A stretch of 64,000 nt of DNA from Thermoplasmata archaeon (lineage in GTDB: Archaea; Thermoplasmatota; Thermoplasmata; Thermoplasmatales; Thermoplasmataceae): positions 1,406 to 65,405 of the forward strand of contig JAJZXS010000041.1 in the NCBI GenBank assembly GCA_021806295.1, in the 5' to 3' direction. A model generated the notes under the pieces. That model had not been told where the DNA came from. It did no database searches and saw only the letters and a program-made list of their open reading frames with translations. Made by a program: the position numbers and the translations under genes. Shown piece after piece: positions 7,921 to 64,000 of the stretch. The first letter of the stretch is position 1. Each line of letters opens with the position of its first letter.

Positions 7921-8694
7921 TTACCTTCTTTTACGGTCTAAACGTCCATGTATATAGCCCCTGAGTCCATAAAAATTTCTAACCATATAAATCGGGGAAA
8001 ACAGTTCTTTTGCCGTTAGGCTGTGTTTGAAATCTATCTTATTGCTGTACTTCTGTTTAAGCTGCCAGCGGCCATATCCATTCCAGTATGCCTGCTTTCT
8101 GAAATCCCTGAAAGTTTCCCTGGTTTTTGTGTAAACTATGCAATTTTTGCATACAGCATGTCTTGCACCCTGGCTTATTGCCCTTATGTTCAGGTCTATG
8201 TCCTCGGCAGTAACGAAATGGCTATCAAATCCACCTATTTTATTGAATAAATCCTTAGAATACATTAGATTTGATGATGGCAGGGTAACATCAAATCCCC
8301 TATAAAAGAGCTTAAATCTCTCCATGGAGTAGTTCATGTTCCCGGTGTTCTTGGTAATCCCGGCCACAACATCATAATTATCTGTATATACCCTTAGATT
8401 CCTTATCCAGTTTTCTCCTGCTATGGCATCCCCGTCAATAAACGCAATATAATTATATTTTGATTTCGAAACGCCGTAGTTCCTTCCGGCACCTCTGGTT
8501 GTCCTTTCCCGGTAATATTTTATAAAATCATATTTTGCTGAGTATTCATTCATAATATCCTGGGTTTTATCAAAGCTCATAGAGTCAACTACTATGACCT
8601 CAAATGGCTGCTCCTGGGGTATCAATGATACCATTAAATCCCTGATATTTTTCTCCTCGTTGAGAACTGTGACAACTATTGAAATGCCTTCCAT
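7921..8694 (-). CDS. Family 2 glycosyltransferase
   Basis: 257 aa. ISIVVTVLNEE...VVDSMSFDKT...DGDA motifs fit a GT-A fold with DxD. Confidence 0.8.
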   Translation of the reverse strand: MEGISIVVTVLNEEKNIRDLMVSLIPQEQPFEVIVVDSMSFDKTQDIMNEYSAKYDFIKYYRERTTRGAGRNYGVSKSKYNYIAFIDGDAIAGENWIRNLRVYTDNYDVVAGITKNTGNMNYSMERFKLFYRGFDVTLPSSNLMYSKDLFNKIGGFDSHFVTAEDIDLNIRAISQGARHAVCKNCIVYTKTRETFRDFRKQAYWNGYGRWQLKQKYSNKIDFKHSLTAKELFSPIYMVRNFYGLRGYIHGRLDRKRR

Positions 8695-8701
8695 TTAACT
8701 T

Positions 8702-8887
8702 TTACCAGTCCATTCTCTGGGTTTCTCTTTCCTTTTTTGTATTCTTTTTATATTCCTTGTAATGGGCCTTGCATAAATGCACCTTGGTTTTTTCCTCTTT
8801 TAATGAGAATACCTTCCCGGCAAGGTCGGCCGGAACCGTTTGAAAACTTTTTTCATTGCATCCAGTAACATCGCATATTTTTTCCAT
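8702..8887 (-). CDS. Small Cys/His protein (C-x4-C ... C-x2-H), hypothetical
   Basis: I trimmed the tracked ORF (to 8950) to the MEKICDVTGCNEKS... start because the longer form overlaps the upstream gene. 61 aa with a basic C-terminus. Confidence 0.4.
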   Translation of the reverse strand: MEKICDVTGCNEKSFQTVPADLAGKVFSLKEEKTKVHLCKAHYKEYKKNTKKERETQRMDW

Positions 8888-58956: not shown

Positions 58957-59517
58957 CTACAATTGCATTCTCCTCCTTGTTCTGATTATAAGCCAGAATA
59001 TTGATGCAACAATCACTGTAGATGTGACAGTGGCAATAATATATACAGAATAAAGAAATATTGAAAGAAAATAAGATGTGTGGTACCCACCTATAATCTG
59101 TATATGGTATAGAATGTAAATAACCACCTCTATTGTTCCATATATAACTGTAAAATAAAGCAGCCAGCCGTAGTTTTCATGTAGCAGGTCATAATTATTT
59201 TTTATTTCATTGTATTCATTAAGTGGCTCATAAACAGCCTGTATTTCACTCTCAGCGTCTGGTATTATTTTCCTGAATATTTCCAGAACATTCCCGTCCC
59301 CGGTTACTCTGATGCCTGATATGATTTTTTCCAGTTCATCCATGAGGTCATTTGAATAAATAAACTCAAGCAATAGTTTTAGGAAAAGAAGGTCCGTTAT
59401 ATTCTTTTTCTTTTGGATATCTCTGAAAAGGATTGCAATCAGCCTGCCGAAGTACAGTATTAGCAATGATGCAATTATAATATAAACCACTATAAGGCCC
59501 GGTAATCTTGGTACCAT
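58957..59517 (-). CDS. Hypothetical membrane protein (N-terminal TM, helical middle, about 3 C-terminal TM)
   Basis: 186 aa clean ORF. No family recognised. Confidence 0.4.
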   Translation of the reverse strand: MVPRLPGLIVVYIIIASLLILYFGRLIAILFRDIQKKKNITDLLFLKLLLEFIYSNDLMDELEKIISGIRVTGDGNVLEIFRKIIPDAESEIQAVYEPLNEYNEIKNNYDLLHENYGWLLYFTVIYGTIEVVIYILYHIQIIGGYHTSYFLSIFLYSVYIIATVTSTVIVASIFWLIIRTRRRMQL

Positions 59518-59661: not shown

Positions 59662-60270
59662 CTAACTCAGATTTAATTTTCTTAAATTGTTTAAATATTC
59701 AATGCCCCTGGTGGTTGCTGTGTATCTCATTCCAGATTCATCTTCTATCATTTGCAGGTAATTCAACTTTAACATTTCACTTATCAAATTTGTACAGTAT
59801 CTATAATTTAAATTGCATCTGTACACAATTTTTGTTATAGATGTGGTCGGGTTTGATATTATTGATTCCAGTATTTCCCTCTGTATGTCAACTTTGGACC
59901 TCTTGGTCCTGGAACTCAGGAATGGTTTTTTTACGGCATTGTTGTCAACCCTCACAGTAATATTATAAAGACCAGAATTAAACCGCAATGATTTGACCAG
60001 CTGTATGTTAATAGAATCTGCCAATTTTTTTATATTGCTATCTATCATGCCAGAGTAAACTGCAATTCTGTTTTCACTTTCTATCTCTTCTGGTATACTT
60101 ACACTTTTTAAAATATTAATCTTGTCAATAATGGTACCTGACAGAAACAATAAAAATATCTTAAGTCCTGTTGTGTCTTTCACAATTTTTGAATAGTTAT
60201 TGCCTGTACCATGAGCCCCAATACACCAGCTTTCAAGTTCAAATGCGTACTCATCATTATTCCTGACCAT
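59662..60270 (-). CDS. Winged-helix (HTH_45-like) DNA-binding protein with uncharacterised N-terminal domain, paralog A
   Basis: C-terminal ITKIVYRCNLNYRYCTNLISEMLKLNYLQMIE...YTATTRGIEYL. It is a paralog of the 60617-61255 product. Confidence 0.6.
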   Translation of the reverse strand: MVRNNDEYAFELESWCIGAHGTGNNYSKIVKDTTGLKIFLLFLSGTIIDKINILKSVSIPEEIESENRIAVYSGMIDSNIKKLADSINIQLVKSLRFNSGLYNITVRVDNNAVKKPFLSSRTKRSKVDIQREILESIISNPTTSITKIVYRCNLNYRYCTNLISEMLKLNYLQMIEDESGMRYTATTRGIEYLNNLRKLNLS

Positions 60271-60616: not shown

Positions 60617-61255
60617 TTATAACGACTTAAGATCATTCAGGTAATTTTTCCCCTCTGAAGTTATTGCATATTTAATGCCGTTCTTATATTCCATAACATC
60701 CACCATACCCTTCTGTATAAGATTTTCAAGCAATTTTATGGCATACTGGTAATTCAGGTTGCATTTGTATATTATCTTTGTAATGTTTATCCCCTCACTG
60801 GAATTAACTGTATCCAGTATTTCCTTGATTATAAATATTTTCTCACGGCGCTGTATTTTTTCATATTTATTCTCAGGTTGCTGGAGTGGCTTTTCCACTG
60901 GACTTGCAGGCACCTCAATTATCTTTGACATATTTGTATGGTTCAGTATTATCTTGTGGCATAGGGTAATATTAAATTTAAGTGATATTTCACGCAATTC
61001 CGGGGGAATCACACCTCCATATATTGCAATTTTTCTGGTATACTGATTCCTTGATACATTCTCTGTAAATTCTTTGATTTTCTTTATCTTGCTATCAGAA
61101 CTTCCCCTGAGCATAACCACTGGAATTTCTTCTCCTGTTTTTCTTGAGCGGAGGATCAGGTCCACCTTATATATATCCACCCTACTGCTGACTATTCCGT
61201 TATACACTTCTTCCCATTCATTGCTGTCAAAAACTATAATTGAATTCTTTACCAT
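60617..61255 (-). CDS. Winged-helix (HTH_45-like) DNA-binding protein with uncharacterised N-terminal domain, paralog B
   Basis: I trimmed the tracked ORF (to 61378) to ATG 61255. That start has AAGGTGG upstream and avoids overlap with the peptidase gene. C-terminal ITKIIYKCNLNYQYAIKLLENLIQKGMV...YAITSEGKNYL. Confidence 0.6.
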   Translation of the reverse strand: MVKNSIIVFDSNEWEEVYNGIVSSRVDIYKVDLILRSRKTGEEIPVVMLRGSSDSKIKKIKEFTENVSRNQYTRKIAIYGGVIPPELREISLKFNITLCHKIILNHTNMSKIIEVPASPVEKPLQQPENKYEKIQRREKIFIIKEILDTVNSSEGINITKIIYKCNLNYQYAIKLLENLIQKGMVDVMEYKNGIKYAITSEGKNYLNDLKSL

Positions 61256-61295
61256 ATTAAACCACCTTCTCTTAAATTTTCTACACATACCATTG

Positions 61296-62495
61296 TTACC
61301 ACCTAACATTTTTCGTTTTCCATGATTTGCTCTTTCTTCCCGGATACAGAAGCATGCCTGCAATCCCAACAAAAACAATTGCCAGTATGAGCTTCGAATA
61401 AATCAAAGCATATCCAAGATATGGAACAGAAAAGAGGACATGTCCTCTTACATCATATGTCGGCACCGGTTCAGGGTCCTTCGACGGATTTGCCACACCC
61501 TTGGTCCTGAAATACTCATGCCCGCCTATGTAGCATATCCTTATTACCTGATGGGCAAACAAAGTACCATTTTCCCAGGGTGCATTGAATACTATAATAT
61601 CACCAACTTTCACAGAGGATGTTTTTATGGGCCCGACAAAAAGTATAGATCCAGGTTTTATAACAGGATACATGCTCCCTGTGGGGTCGCCTATAACGAA
61701 GTAACTGTGATCGGAAATTCCGGGTGCTATTGCTATGGATGCAATGCTCACAATAACCACTATAACTATAAGCCACTTTGAGTTCTTAAGTGCCTTTTTT
61801 ATATTGATCCTATTTCCGGAGAACACGTTTTTGAAATTAAAGGAAGATTTCATTACTAAATCAGAGATGAATATTACCAGAGAAAGGGCAATCATTTCCC
61901 ACATGAGATAGTAATATTTCGAGACATTAATGTTGATAGAAAGTGATGTAAAAAGCATGAACATGAAAAGGAAAACAAGAATTCCTGCAAAATTAAATCC
62001 GGATTTATAAAAAATAAATAGTACTGTCAATGCCAGGAAAAATATGAAAATCATATTGAAAACTGCTATGGAAAATATTGTCTTTGTGTCTATCAGTACA
62101 TAATATGGGTAATAAAATAGTAAGACAGTAGACCCGAAAATTAACCCCTCTATGGCAAAATTCTTTATTCCTGATTTTTCAATGCAAAGCAGGACAAGGT
62201 ATAATGAAAATGCTGTAATGGCAGAATAGGCCAGCGTTGAGGGAAGAACGCCAGCATAGAAATGGAAAGTAATTTTATGGAATGCTATTCCTGGCTCCAG
62301 AAGAAAAATTTCCATAAATATTCCCAGGGCTGCGACCTTTACTATATCCCTGTTAATGTTTAGCCTTATGCTGAAAACCATCGGAAGCAGCGGGATAAGT
62401 GATACCAGCACTGTTATCCATGTATTTTTCAGATAAGCTAAGGATAGCTGGTAGACTATTATGTACGCAAGCACAAGAGACAGTATTCTTTTCAT
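61296..62495 (-). CDS. Archaeal/ER-type (SipW-like, S26B) signal peptidase I fused to a ~235 aa polytopic N-terminal membrane domain
   Basis: The C-terminal ~160 aa carries GSMYP (Ser), VGDIIVF, AHQVI (His) and TKGVANPSKDP (Asp), plus flanking TM anchors. The N-terminal part has about 7-8 hydrophobic segments. Confidence 0.7.
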   Translation of the reverse strand: MKRILSLVLAYIIVYQLSLAYLKNTWITVLVSLIPLLPMVFSIRLNINRDIVKVAALGIFMEIFLLEPGIAFHKITFHFYAGVLPSTLAYSAITAFSLYLVLLCIEKSGIKNFAIEGLIFGSTVLLFYYPYYVLIDTKTIFSIAVFNMIFIFFLALTVLFIFYKSGFNFAGILVFLFMFMLFTSLSININVSKYYYLMWEMIALSLVIFISDLVMKSSFNFKNVFSGNRINIKKALKNSKWLIVIVVIVSIASIAIAPGISDHSYFVIGDPTGSMYPVIKPGSILFVGPIKTSSVKVGDIIVFNAPWENGTLFAHQVIRICYIGGHEYFRTKGVANPSKDPEPVPTYDVRGHVLFSVPYLGYALIYSKLILAIVFVGIAGMLLYPGRKSKSWKTKNVRW

Positions 62496-63442
62496 TTCTC
62501 AACCCCTCTGTAGGAATAGACATAATTTTTGAAATCATGGGAGACGAAGAAAAGTGAACTCTTTTTTATATAGAATAATGGTTCATGGTAGGCATCGGAT
62601 AATTTGACCAGTTCATCAAATGTATCCACTTTTGTCACAATACCCTTAGGCATTGCTTCCACATCTATTATCCTGTCACCGAACTCCTGGAGTTTCAGAT
62701 CCAGTTTGCTTTTCTTCTTTGGCACACCAATGTACGTGACAGCCAGGAAAACAAAAAGTATGGCTGATGGAACTATTATTATATATCCATATAAAGCTGG
62801 CAGTCCTATTATGGGCTTGCTGCCGTAGGCATCTTTTATATCCACTGTTCCGGTCATGCTGGCCGGGCTGCCATATTTAACCGTATAATAATGATTCCCC
62901 TGGCTTATCAGAAGGTATGTGCTTGAGGAGATTCCACTAACAGGATCCTGGACAGTTATATTTATGTCAACTGTGGGGCTTGTTCCTGTATATCCAAGCT
63001 GGCTATCTATCTCAGCCGACTGATTATAAAGGCATGAAAGGTTTAAAGGAATCACCATGCCTGAAATAGTCTGGCTTCCGTTGAATTCCAGTGTTGAACT
63101 GTTTGAGCTGAATAACTTGGACCATGAAGGGTTTGATGATATTACACCTATGGAATAGTCAATAAATACGGTTTGTTTACTGGAAGATAGAAAATTTGCG
63201 GTTATATATACTGTCATATTTTTCAGTAGTTTTTCATATATAACGGTTGGATTGTAAAGGTGATTTGAACTATACAGGCTATTATTTGTTATATTGGCCT
63301 CAAGGTTTACCTGCGCGCTTGATACAAAATTGGTTTCAGGAATTTCTTTGCTATGCTCCCTGGGTTCAAGTATAATAAATGAAGAAAAAATAATAGCGAC
63401 TGCCAGAATTATTATAATCGCCAGATGCAGTTTTTTATTCAT
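62492..63442 (-). CDS. Two-TM protein with a sequon-rich extracytoplasmic domain and small cytoplasmic C-terminal domain (DUF5305-like architecture)
   Basis: N-terminal TM (LHLAIIIILAVAIIFSSFIIL), eight N-x-S/T sequons by my count, and a second TM (YGYIIIVPSAILFVFLAVTYIGV). ATGA overlap with the peptidase gene. Confidence 0.55.
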   Translation of the reverse strand: MNKKLHLAIIIILAVAIIFSSFIILEPREHSKEIPETNFVSSAQVNLEANITNNSLYSSNHLYNPTVIYEKLLKNMTVYITANFLSSSKQTVFIDYSIGVISSNPSWSKLFSSNSSTLEFNGSQTISGMVIPLNLSCLYNQSAEIDSQLGYTGTSPTVDINITVQDPVSGISSSTYLLISQGNHYYTVKYGSPASMTGTVDIKDAYGSKPIIGLPALYGYIIIVPSAILFVFLAVTYIGVPKKKSKLDLKLQEFGDRIIDVEAMPKGIVTKVDTFDELVKLSDAYHEPLFYIKKSSLFFVSHDFKNYVYSYRGVEK

Positions 63443-63485
63443 ATAAATTGGATGTATGTATTAGTTTAACCTTTATTTATTAAAA

Positions 63486-63519
63486 GTACTGAGTTATGAT
63501 ATTTATTTAATATCAGTAC
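63486..63519. promoter_or_regulatory. Inverted repeat GTACTGA-N20-TCAGTAC in the divergent promoter region
   Basis: Perfect 7-bp arms at 63486-63492 and 63513-63519, separated by an AT-rich spacer. It lies between the two divergent start codons (63442 and 63651). Confidence 0.3.
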
Positions 63520-63650
63520 ATGATATACTTATGTATTATAAAAACTATTATTTTTTACCTGTTTTATGGTCTAACTCTTTTAATTACTGCACCATATTTT
63601 AATTTCCTGTTTTATTATTTACAGATAACAGATTAATTTCTGGTGACTAA

Positions 63651-64000
63651 ATGAACAAAAAGTTAGCCGTATTATTGGTAGTGCCAATTCTTATTGCAAT
63701 GGGAGGAACATTCGCTTTCTCCGCATTCTCTGGGAGTTCTAGCGTTGCCATTAATAGCACAGCAGGCCATTTGACCTGGGATGAAAGTGGGATATTGGTA
63801 GCTACGAATGCAAATAACACACCATTGACCGTAGAGGGTCCAAATGGGGTTATATATGAGATAGGAGCGTCTGAACCATATGCGCCCGGCAGCAGCCATC
63901 TAAATCTTGGAACTCTAGCAATGAGCACTGCAAACAGCGGGAAGGAATATGTCGTGAATGCAACCAACTTTGCGCCTGGTGAATATATAGAGGTACAGGT
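63651..64000 (+). CDS. 5' part of a secreted protein with a SipW-cognate (TasA/camelysin-type) signal peptide; runs off the window
   Basis: ATG at 63651 is preceded by GGTGA 4 nt upstream, and the frame is open to the window end. Translation: MNKKLAVLLVVPILIAMGGTFAFSAFSGSSSVAINSTAGHLTWDES...NFAPGEYIEVQ. It is not in the ORF track because no stop lies in the window. Confidence 0.65.
   Translation, partial: MNKKLAVLLVVPILIAMGGTFAFSAFSGSSSVAINSTAGHLTWDESGILVATNANNTPLTVEGPNGVIYEIGASEPYAPGSSHLNLGTLAMSTANSGKEYVVNATNFAPGEYIEVQ

Follow-up and report, generated by a model that had tools for sequence, protein, structure and literature searches.

The 64,000-nucleotide window analysed here, part of contig JAJZXS010000041.1 of a Thermoplasmata archaeon, encodes a signal peptidase I (SPase I) of 399 amino acids in which an archaeal, endoplasmic reticulum (ER)-type catalytic domain is preceded by eight transmembrane helices (TMs). 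On balance, we favour as the probable explanation that this protein is a dedicated peptidase of the SipW/TafD type, belonging to a fibre or matrix locus of the TasA/AbpX superfamily in Thermoplasmata, and that its N-terminal domain (N-domain) is a non-catalytic, SpdC-like scaffold or gating module. The evidence consists of the fusion architecture and its conservation, the catalytic residues, the synteny of the locus, a family of secreted cargo proteins with a shared signal peptide, and the fold match of the N-domain.

Architecture and spread of the fusion protein

The gene begins with an ATG and continues for 399 codons uninterrupted by stops. The start codon shares bases with the stop of the preceding gene (ATGA), and a Shine-Dalgarno-like GAGGGG lies 7-13 nt upstream of the start. 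The protein is laid out as follows (AF2, AlphaFold2; pLDDT, predicted local distance difference test score):

61296-62495, reverse strand: ten-TM SPase I gene, 399 amino acids; 8-TM N-domain plus archaeal/ER-type SPase I domain (TIGR02228).
61848-62495, reverse strand: N-terminal 8-TM domain, residues 1-216; SpdC-like fold without catalytic motifs (AF2 model, Foldseek).
61776-61847, reverse strand: cytoplasmic linker between TM8 and the peptidase anchor, residues 217-240; rich in Lys and Arg (seven per 24 residues), low pLDDT.
61716-61775, reverse strand: TM9, the canonical N-in/C-out peptidase anchor, residues 241-260; hydropathy peak 2.84, aligned to the start of TIGR02228.
61428-61715, reverse strand: extracytoplasmic catalytic domain, residues 261-356; Ser274, His315 and Asp340, with variant box D (H-Q) and box E (G-V-A-N).
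61296-61427, reverse strand: TM10 and basic cytoplasmic tail RKSKSWKTKNVRW, residues 357-399, plus the stop codon (hydropathy; AF2 helix 360-383).

Hydropathy and a full-length AF2 model both place eight helices in residues 1-216, TM9 at residues 241-260 and the last TM at residues 357-385, and the catalytic domain (261-356) is modelled as beta-rich. A sequence-only reading of this DNA had described a SipW-like or archaeal SPase I fused to a polytopic domain, with 7-8 hydrophobic segments ahead of the peptidase. The TIGR02228 match and the eight upstream helices bear out that description. The predicted topology has the N-terminus inside, ten TMs and the catalytic domain outside the cell. This fits the positive-inside count, with ~20 Lys and Arg on predicted cytoplasmic loops versus ~4 outside (tallied from the hydropathy listing).

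The same architecture recurs throughout the class. A word-indexed search returned 34 relatives, and the full-length ones were 358-410 amino acids long, with identities of 95% in Ferroplasma, 61% in Acidiplasma, 39% in Picrophilus and 32% in Thermoplasmatales archaeon AK. Altogether, ~20 full-length homologues across Thermoplasmata (23-95% identity) keep the fusion. That the N-terminal part might be a separate gene, or the product of a frameshift, was ruled out: the frame is continuous, no Met occurs in residues 216-274, and homologues keep their lengths, every intact member retaining the fusion at 367-422 amino acids.

An exhaustive hmmsearch of 1.84 billion representative proteins with a profile of the N-domain only gave 16 matches. 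All eight strong matches, and 11 of the 16 in total, were fusions of 367-422 amino acids, and the remaining five (107-187 amino acids, taken uninspected) may in some cases be contig-end fragments. With those five short ones uninspected, no stand-alone N-domain gene was identified among the 16. The domain was seen only in Thermoplasmata genomes of this survey. A scan of GTDB species genomes added 21 further loci from Ferroplasmaceae, Acidiplasma, Thermoplasmataceae, other Thermoplasmata metagenome-assembled genomes (MAGs) and Ca. Sysuiplasma. The scan relied on one pattern specific to the family (Gx[IV][IL][VE]F[NHT]APW), which missed Picrophilus and the named Ferroplasma species, so that absences in it are uninformative.

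The catalytic triad is intact and box D/E varies in concert

Residues 238-368 match TIGR02228 (sigpep_I_arch), the NCBIfam model for archaeal signal peptidases I (MEROPS S26B), with an E-value of 2e-26 and 92.8 bits, against a cutoff of 51.85; the Pfam S26 model remained sub-threshold on the fusion protein. The Ser of GSMYP, the His of AHQVI and the Asp of SKDP, which the sequence-only reading had assigned together with a C-terminal TM to the last ~160 amino acids, were all located there, as Ser274 (nt 61674-61676), His315 (nt 61551-61553) and Asp340 (nt 61476-61478). A phmmer search of the Protein Data Bank (PDB) paired S274, H315 and D340 with S56, H96 and D122 of human SEC11A, and V334 with D116. 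The best Foldseek matches of the full-length model were likewise SEC11C and SEC11A. Signal-peptide cleavage is the predicted activity of the enzyme. Its length is atypical of the type, since the closest catalytic-domain relatives among the matches listed in the profile search span 113-207 amino acids.

Val334 (nt 61494-61496) occupies the position of the first Asp in the canonical TKGDNN. The replacement of this Asp, already evident to the sequence-only reading, is a family-wide feature. In an alignment of 18-19 family members, Val or Ile fills position 334 throughout, giving box E as G-[VI]-[AN]-N, while position 316 holds Glu, Gln or Met and never Arg, so that box D reads H-[EQM]. None of these members carries the canonical pair of the first Asp of GDNN and the Arg of box D. 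Meanwhile, H-R and G-D are both present in five of five canonical ER-type relatives aligned, as well as in three short archaeal peptidases caught by the genome scan.

In SEC11A, Asp122 completes the catalytic triad, and Asp116 is structural, forming a salt bridge with Arg97, the residue next after the catalytic His (bioRxiv 10.1101/2020.11.11.378711). Judged from the alignment, the box E variant is one half of a correlated loss of this structural Asp-Arg salt bridge, with the triad left intact, and does not amount to a reworked active site. Because the pair is structural and not catalytic in SEC11A, its loss is no argument against activity. The downstream Asp, which had been noted as kept, is invariant in the family together with the Ser and His. 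It corresponds to the catalytic Asp of SEC11A and of the Methanococcus voltae enzyme, whose critical residues are given as Ser52, His122 and Asp148 in a review (PMC4343526) that wrongly enters them in the FlaK row of its table.

The predicted fold of the N-domain resembles SpdC

At the level of sequence, the N-terminal 235 amino acids matched nothing in Pfam or NCBIfam, even with the limit relaxed to E<=10, and a profile of the N-domain family found no sequence match in the PDB. To that extent the sequence-only reading, which recognised no family here, still stands. At the level of fold, the predicted model qualifies it. Modelled alone with the family alignment, the N-domain reached a pLDDT of 84.6 and a predicted template modelling score (pTM) of 0.82, and Foldseek against the PDB gave one credible match, 6u0o chain A (template modelling scores 0.59/0.56, probability 1.0, E 0.024). 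This chain has 248 residues, consistent with the crystallised SpdC(1-256). All other matches had probabilities <=0.33; the third was APH-1 (template modelling score 0.36), which has been reported in the literature as derived from CAAX proteases and as a relative of the CPBP family. The modelled fold thus resembles SpdC, a degenerate CAAX-protease-like scaffold.

SpdC is a CAAX-protease-like protein of eight TMs that serves as the non-catalytic partner of the glucosaminidase SagB. Its TM3 holds the single TM helix of SagB, and the loop between TM3 and TM4 contacts the catalytic domain and orients its active site. A second degenerate CAAX-like 8-TM protein, SpbR, is an inhibitor of the SPase I SpsB, whose TM helix and ectodomain it binds (PMC12260438).

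None of the CPBP motifs (EExxxR, FxxxH, HxxxN/D) occurs in the family alignment of the N-domain. The alignment also contains no conserved His or Cys, and two members are without any His in the domain. Since it offers no conserved His or Cys, the N-domain is probably non-catalytic, and an active CPBP or exosortase-like protease was rejected on the motifs. The only invariant residue of the domain is Pro68; Glu67, Lys164, Phe175 and Trp199 are near-invariant. In the model, the conserved E67, P68, Y90, S192 and W199 map to the ends of TM3, TM4 and TM8 that are predicted to face outwards, and the conserved residues are predicted to share a membrane side with the active site of the peptidase.

Gene content of the locus

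The neighbourhood of the peptidase gene was compared with related loci (L001-L004 and L006-L026), of which 22 carry the fusion, by scanning hidden Markov models (HMMs) of the neighbours across all fetched loci. Within the window, the following genes flank the peptidase:

62492-63442, reverse strand: DUF5305 (TafG-like) protein, putative peptidase accessory, 316 amino acids; Pfam DUF5305 1.8e-9, translationally coupled to the peptidase gene.
63651-64000, forward strand, continuing past the end of the window: 5' part of a cargo gene for a TasA/AbpX-like secreted protein, translation MNKKLAVLLVVPILIAMGGTFAFSAFSGS...
60617-61255, reverse strand: HTH_45 winged-helix regulator, 212 amino acids; Pfam HTH_45 4.7e-13, start taken from the orthologue at L001 11240-11878.
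59662-60270, reverse strand: second HTH_45 paralogue, 202 amino acids; Pfam HTH_45 6e-12.
58957-59517, reverse strand: conserved membrane protein of ~190 amino acids; no family match, matches of its own HMM in 16 of 22 fusion loci.

Of the 22 fusion loci, 21 have a DUF5305-like gene, and the one without it (L011) is cut at a contig end. The gene usually lies directly upstream, overlapping the start of the peptidase gene. Its product has TMs at residues ~1-28 and 211-241. The HTH_45 gene was found in 20 loci (L011 and L015 are cut at contig ends), and both genes together in 20 of 22, the exceptions again lying at contig ends. Cargo genes of ~220-260 amino acids, in 1-3 copies, accompany the fusion in 18 of the 22. 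The sequence-only reading had suspected an adjacent cargo with a SipW-type signal and had raised the question of whether the fusion is conserved beside such genes. The divergent secreted-protein gene at 63651, with its conserved signal, and the counts above answer both points in the affirmative.

The whole module occurs three times in MAG HSP1.bin41 (L013, L015, L019) and twice in MAG YP3.bin51 (L011, L017). These copies could be true paralogues or could reflect mixed strains in the bins. In one Thermoplasmata clade (L016-L019) there are three cargo paralogues, one upstream of the DUF5305 gene and two downstream of the peptidase, which suggests major and minor subunits.

The HTH_45 genes, a tandem pair in the window and one or two per module in almost every locus, are presumably the regulators of the locus. 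Both of their products combine an uncharacterised N-terminal part of ~120-140 amino acids with a C-terminal HTH_45/Sso10a-like winged helix, and the second copy also occurs in Ferroplasmaceae and Acidiplasma loci. The mechanically called open reading frame of the first (60617-61378, reverse strand, 253 amino acids, TTG start) would run into the 3' end of the peptidase gene; comparison with the orthologue puts the true ATG at 61255, leaving a 40-bp gap. The AT-rich intergenic region of ~208 bp at 63443-63650 separates the DUF5305/peptidase operon from the divergent cargo gene and is the likely candidate site of both promoters and of HTH_45 binding. The ~190-amino-acid membrane protein has one N-terminal TM, a charged helical middle part and C-terminal TMs.

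A cargo family with a near-invariant signal peptide

The cargo gene runs off the window, and its full orthologue of 229 amino acids is encoded at 8155-8844 on the reverse strand of L001, the Ferroplasma genome with 95% identity. We detected 91 members of this family. Genomes hold several paralogues each, and every member with a named source comes from Thermoplasmata; no annotation beyond "hypothetical" was found among these 91. The N-terminus follows the consensus MNKKL-x2-LMMVP[VI]LVVMGGTFAFSA[FW]SG. A22 and S24 are invariant, and V11, P12, M17, G19, F23, A25 and G28 are conserved in >=90% of members. The mature part diverges to 16-30% identity, far below the conservation of the signal peptide. 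Cleavage after Ala22 (T-F-A|F) is favoured by the -3/-1 rule. The cleavage site of TasA is GGGTWA|AF, and we take the GGTFA|F signal of the cargo to resemble the TasA/camelysin type.

A 30-member cargo profile run against the PDB had AbpX (9sj2) as its best match (E 0.0018) among six sequences at E<=10, with TasA at E 0.3. Meanwhile, Pfam Peptidase_M73, the TasA/camelysin family, was touched by 7 of 30 cargo members (best E 2.9e-4).

Some cargo paralogues, namely P0080 and P0083 of Ferroplasma, P0063 and P0070, carry a mid-protein low-complexity insert of 30-60 residues (alignment A6, columns 200-260). It is rich in N, G, W and C in some (NGNCCGMQG...NGWNGNSWYN) and rich in Pro in others.

Proposed mechanism and alternative explanations

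We propose that the cargo is exported with its family-specific signal peptide (MNKKL..VPxLVVMGGTFA|FSAFSG) and is met outside the membrane by the peptidase domain standing on TM9, whose Ser274-His315-Asp340 triad would probably cut after the invariant Ala22. The cut would free the conserved N-terminal strand, presumably for donor-strand assembly. The 8-TM N-domain most likely packs against the peptidase, along its TM anchor and membrane-proximal face. Acting jointly with the DUF5305 partner and its two TMs, the N-domain may select the cognate signal peptide by positioning the active site or gating it. The fusion would then do in cis what the SpdC-SagB and SpbR-SpsB pairs do in Staphylococcus aureus, and the Asp-to-Val/Ile change in box E would be a neutral structural substitution paired with the loss of the box D Arg. 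A bolder extension, which we regard as possible yet doubtful, is that the eight helices correspond, in archaeal and covalently fused form, to the degenerate-CAAX scaffolds of bacteria (SpdC, SpbR, LnsB) and form, with DUF5305, a prokaryotic "signal peptidase complex" in which the membrane part reads the hyper-conserved h- and c-regions of the cargo signal.

The argument for a dedicated role comes from the linkage to the cargo, the copies of the module in some MAGs and the hyper-conserved cargo signal. Several observations weigh against this interpretation or narrow it. The full-length AF2 model is only moderately confident (pLDDT 74.7, pTM 0.57), with low scores in TM9 and TM10, so that the packing between domains is unreliably predicted. 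The match to 6u0o comes with 8% sequence identity and a modest E-value, the active CAAX protease Rce1 is absent among the 50 Foldseek matches listed for the N-domain, and the Pfam CPBP model (PF02517) gave no match on it at E<=10. Since the model is predicted, the E-value modest and Rce1 unlisted, we would say that the N-domain works like and looks like SpdC, and we do not call it a CPBP member. On the side of the peptidase, the Bacillus SipW equivalog (NCBIfam NF046067) scored 59.1 bits, below its cutoff of 190; by this measure the enzyme would work like SipW and is not a SipW orthologue. The scores of the cargo for AbpX, TasA and Peptidase_M73 are weak but consistent, and the cargo had no match at E<=10 in NCBIfam, which includes the SipW-cognate signal model. 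The fusion family itself is known from sequences and predicted structures alone. Furthermore, "dedicated" may not mean exclusive, as the enzyme may also serve general secretion.

This last point leads to the rather unlikely alternative that the protein is the general, housekeeping SPase I of these wall-less acidophiles, its extra helices being a lineage-specific adaptation, perhaps to tetraether monolayer membranes or to extreme acidity, and the neighbouring cargo proteins only some of its many substrates. Public records of Ferroplasma, Picrophilus and Thermoplasmatales archaeon AK call it plainly "signal peptidase I", and the 64-kb window contains no other ER-type peptidase domain. No second peptidase of these genera turned up either, in searches that were unable to find one: the catalytic-domain profile search was saturated at no fewer than 7198 matches, with no named Thermoplasmata entry among the top 120 listed, and the genome-scan pattern, being family-specific, is blind to canonical peptidases as a class. 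Against a housekeeping role stand the tight linkage, in practically every locus and across distant Thermoplasmata, to the genes for DUF5305, cargo and regulator, the presence of the whole module in two copies in one MAG and three in another, and a cargo signal whose hyper-conservation is typical of a dedicated processing system. In addition, an unrelated polytopic N-domain sits on a SipW-type peptidase beside DUF5305 in a bacterium that has trigger factor and ClpXP on the same contig. Being the sole peptidase and serving the neighbouring cargo are, moreover, not mutually exclusive.

The remaining alternatives accept the link to the cargo and differ in what the N-domain does. It might be a built-in inhibitor, acting as SpbR does on SpsB and released by DUF5305, the ~190-amino-acid membrane protein or the cargo, so that maturation would occur only at the assembly site. 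SpbR sets a precedent in binding and inhibiting a type I signal peptidase, the N-domain has a related SpdC-like fold, and the module carries its own regulators. However, the sole structural match is SpdC, which did not inhibit SpsB in vitro, and a scaffold is a more parsimonious reading than an inhibitor that stays fused for good; the sequence offers nothing that separates the two roles, and overall we consider an inhibitor improbable. The chances are smaller still that the domain is a platform or conduit for fibre assembly, holding the N-terminal strand of the subunit and catalysing donor-strand exchange like an usher. Fibres of the TasA/Abp/tafi type have no known chaperone or usher, and the conserved residues do cluster on the outer face of the domain, but all Foldseek matches to ushers, channels or transporters had probabilities <=0.33, and a 216-residue bundle of eight helices with very short loops presents little extracellular surface. 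The sequence-only reading had offered three roles, as platform, as channel or in substrate recognition, and among these the channel has the least support. Hardly credible, finally, is the idea that the N-domain works as an intramembrane protease of the CPBP/Rce1 or exosortase-like kind, either to break down the released signal peptide or to cut the cargo a second time. Coupling signal-peptide removal to clearance would make sense, and the fold does resemble a relative of CAAX proteases. The domain is nevertheless without EExxxR, FxxxH and HxxxN/D, has no conserved His or Cys and is free of His in two members, in line with the failure of the Pfam CPBP model at E<=10. We therefore return to the dedicated peptidase with a non-catalytic SpdC-like scaffold or gating module as the explanation we favour.

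Implications

The subunits of biofilms and fibres mature under the control of dedicated peptidases such as SipW and TafD, and how these choose their substrates is poorly understood. Such enzymes in TasA-superfamily loci were already known, and ten-TM forms were noted in a January 2026 preprint. New here are the Thermoplasmata family and its locus, the SpdC-like fold of the N-domain, the covariation of boxes D and E, and the implied surface-fibre locus in Ferroplasma-type acidophiles. The fusion, the co-translated DUF5305 protein and the near-invariant cargo signal make up a compact system for asking whether accessory TM helices set specificity, as has likewise been proposed for the eukaryotic complex and for SpbR-SpsB. 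If the N-domain is indeed a fused degenerate-CAAX counterpart, Bacteria and Archaea would share an ancient way of controlling ecto-hydrolases through pseudo-proteases, and the fusion would serve as a single-polypeptide model of accessory TM helices conferring substrate specificity on a signal peptidase.

Our data also indicate that Ferroplasma, Acidiplasma, Picrophilus and their relatives encode a putative surface fibre of the TasA/AbpX type. We found no description of such a fibre in these wall-less acidophiles in the literature, and its existence would bear on the biofilms of acid mine drainage.

Comparison with known systems

The closest parallel is found in the AbpX loci, for which a dedicated, "structurally distinct" SPase I with ten transmembrane helices and a DUF5305 protein as its likely accessory subunit have been reported (bioRxiv 10.64898/2026.01.04.697558, January 2026). 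The preprint gives the ten-TM peptidase one sentence, with no Thermoplasmata, CAAX proteins or fold of the extra helices. As in those loci, a ten-helix SPase I is encoded here next to a putative fibre protein resembling AbpX, a DUF5305 protein and transcription factors, and AbpX is the best solved relative of the cargo profile. Hydropathy and AF2 give 8 + 2 helices in our protein, and the likeness to the published examples is one of helix count. The N-domain described here differs in having no detectable sequence relatives outside its own 16 clusters.

A bacterial metagenome scaffold with trigger factor, ClpP and ClpX (L005, 5357-8834) displays a comparable arrangement of a 186-amino-acid gene, a 385-amino-acid peptidase (P0029), DUF5305 and a 195-amino-acid gene. 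P0029 combines a polytopic N-terminus with a SipW-type domain, has canonical H-R and G-D and is without a C-terminal TM. Homology between the two N-domains was rejected, as hhalign gave a probability of 0.2 and no detectable similarity. On this evidence, the extra helices may go back to several independent acquisitions, or they may have diverged too far to be recognised as related.

In Haloarcula, the Tat-fimbriae are lost when tafD is deleted, and TafA is then found in a larger, apparently unprocessed form; the partner of TafD is TafG, a DUF5305 protein (PMC11821415). In Bacillus subtilis, SipW processes TasA and TapA (review PMC9245690). The Thermoplasmata locus shares with TafD/TafG and with the tapA-sipW-tasA operon an ER-type Ser/His peptidase encoded with a fibre subunit of the TasA superfamily, a putative one in our case; in the published systems the peptidase is required for processing that subunit. 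Its pairing with DUF5305 mirrors that of TafD with TafG. The architectures differ: TafD has four TMs, an N-terminal peptidase and an extra C-terminal ectodomain, whereas here the peptidase is C-terminal and follows eight TMs; SipW has about two TMs, and the fusion falls below the NCBIfam SipW cutoff. TafA, moreover, carries a twin-arginine signal, and the signal of our cargo is Sec-like and without twin arginines.

The S. aureus pairs SpdC-SagB and SpbR-SpsB offer the same combination of an N-in/C-in bundle of eight TMs without protease motifs and a membrane-anchored extracytoplasmic hydrolase. In our case, both parts belong to one archaeal polypeptide and the peptidase is of the ER type and not the P type; the similarity lies at the level of fold, and the functional tie is a proposed one. 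The eukaryotic signal peptidase complex (SEC11 with SPC12/22/25) has the same triad and fold, and its peptidase is also surrounded by extra TM helices, which form a membrane-thinning window that selects signal peptides. In the Thermoplasmata enzyme, these helices are fused and non-homologous to the SPC subunits, and the salt bridge between the box D Arg and the box E Asp of SEC11 is absent.

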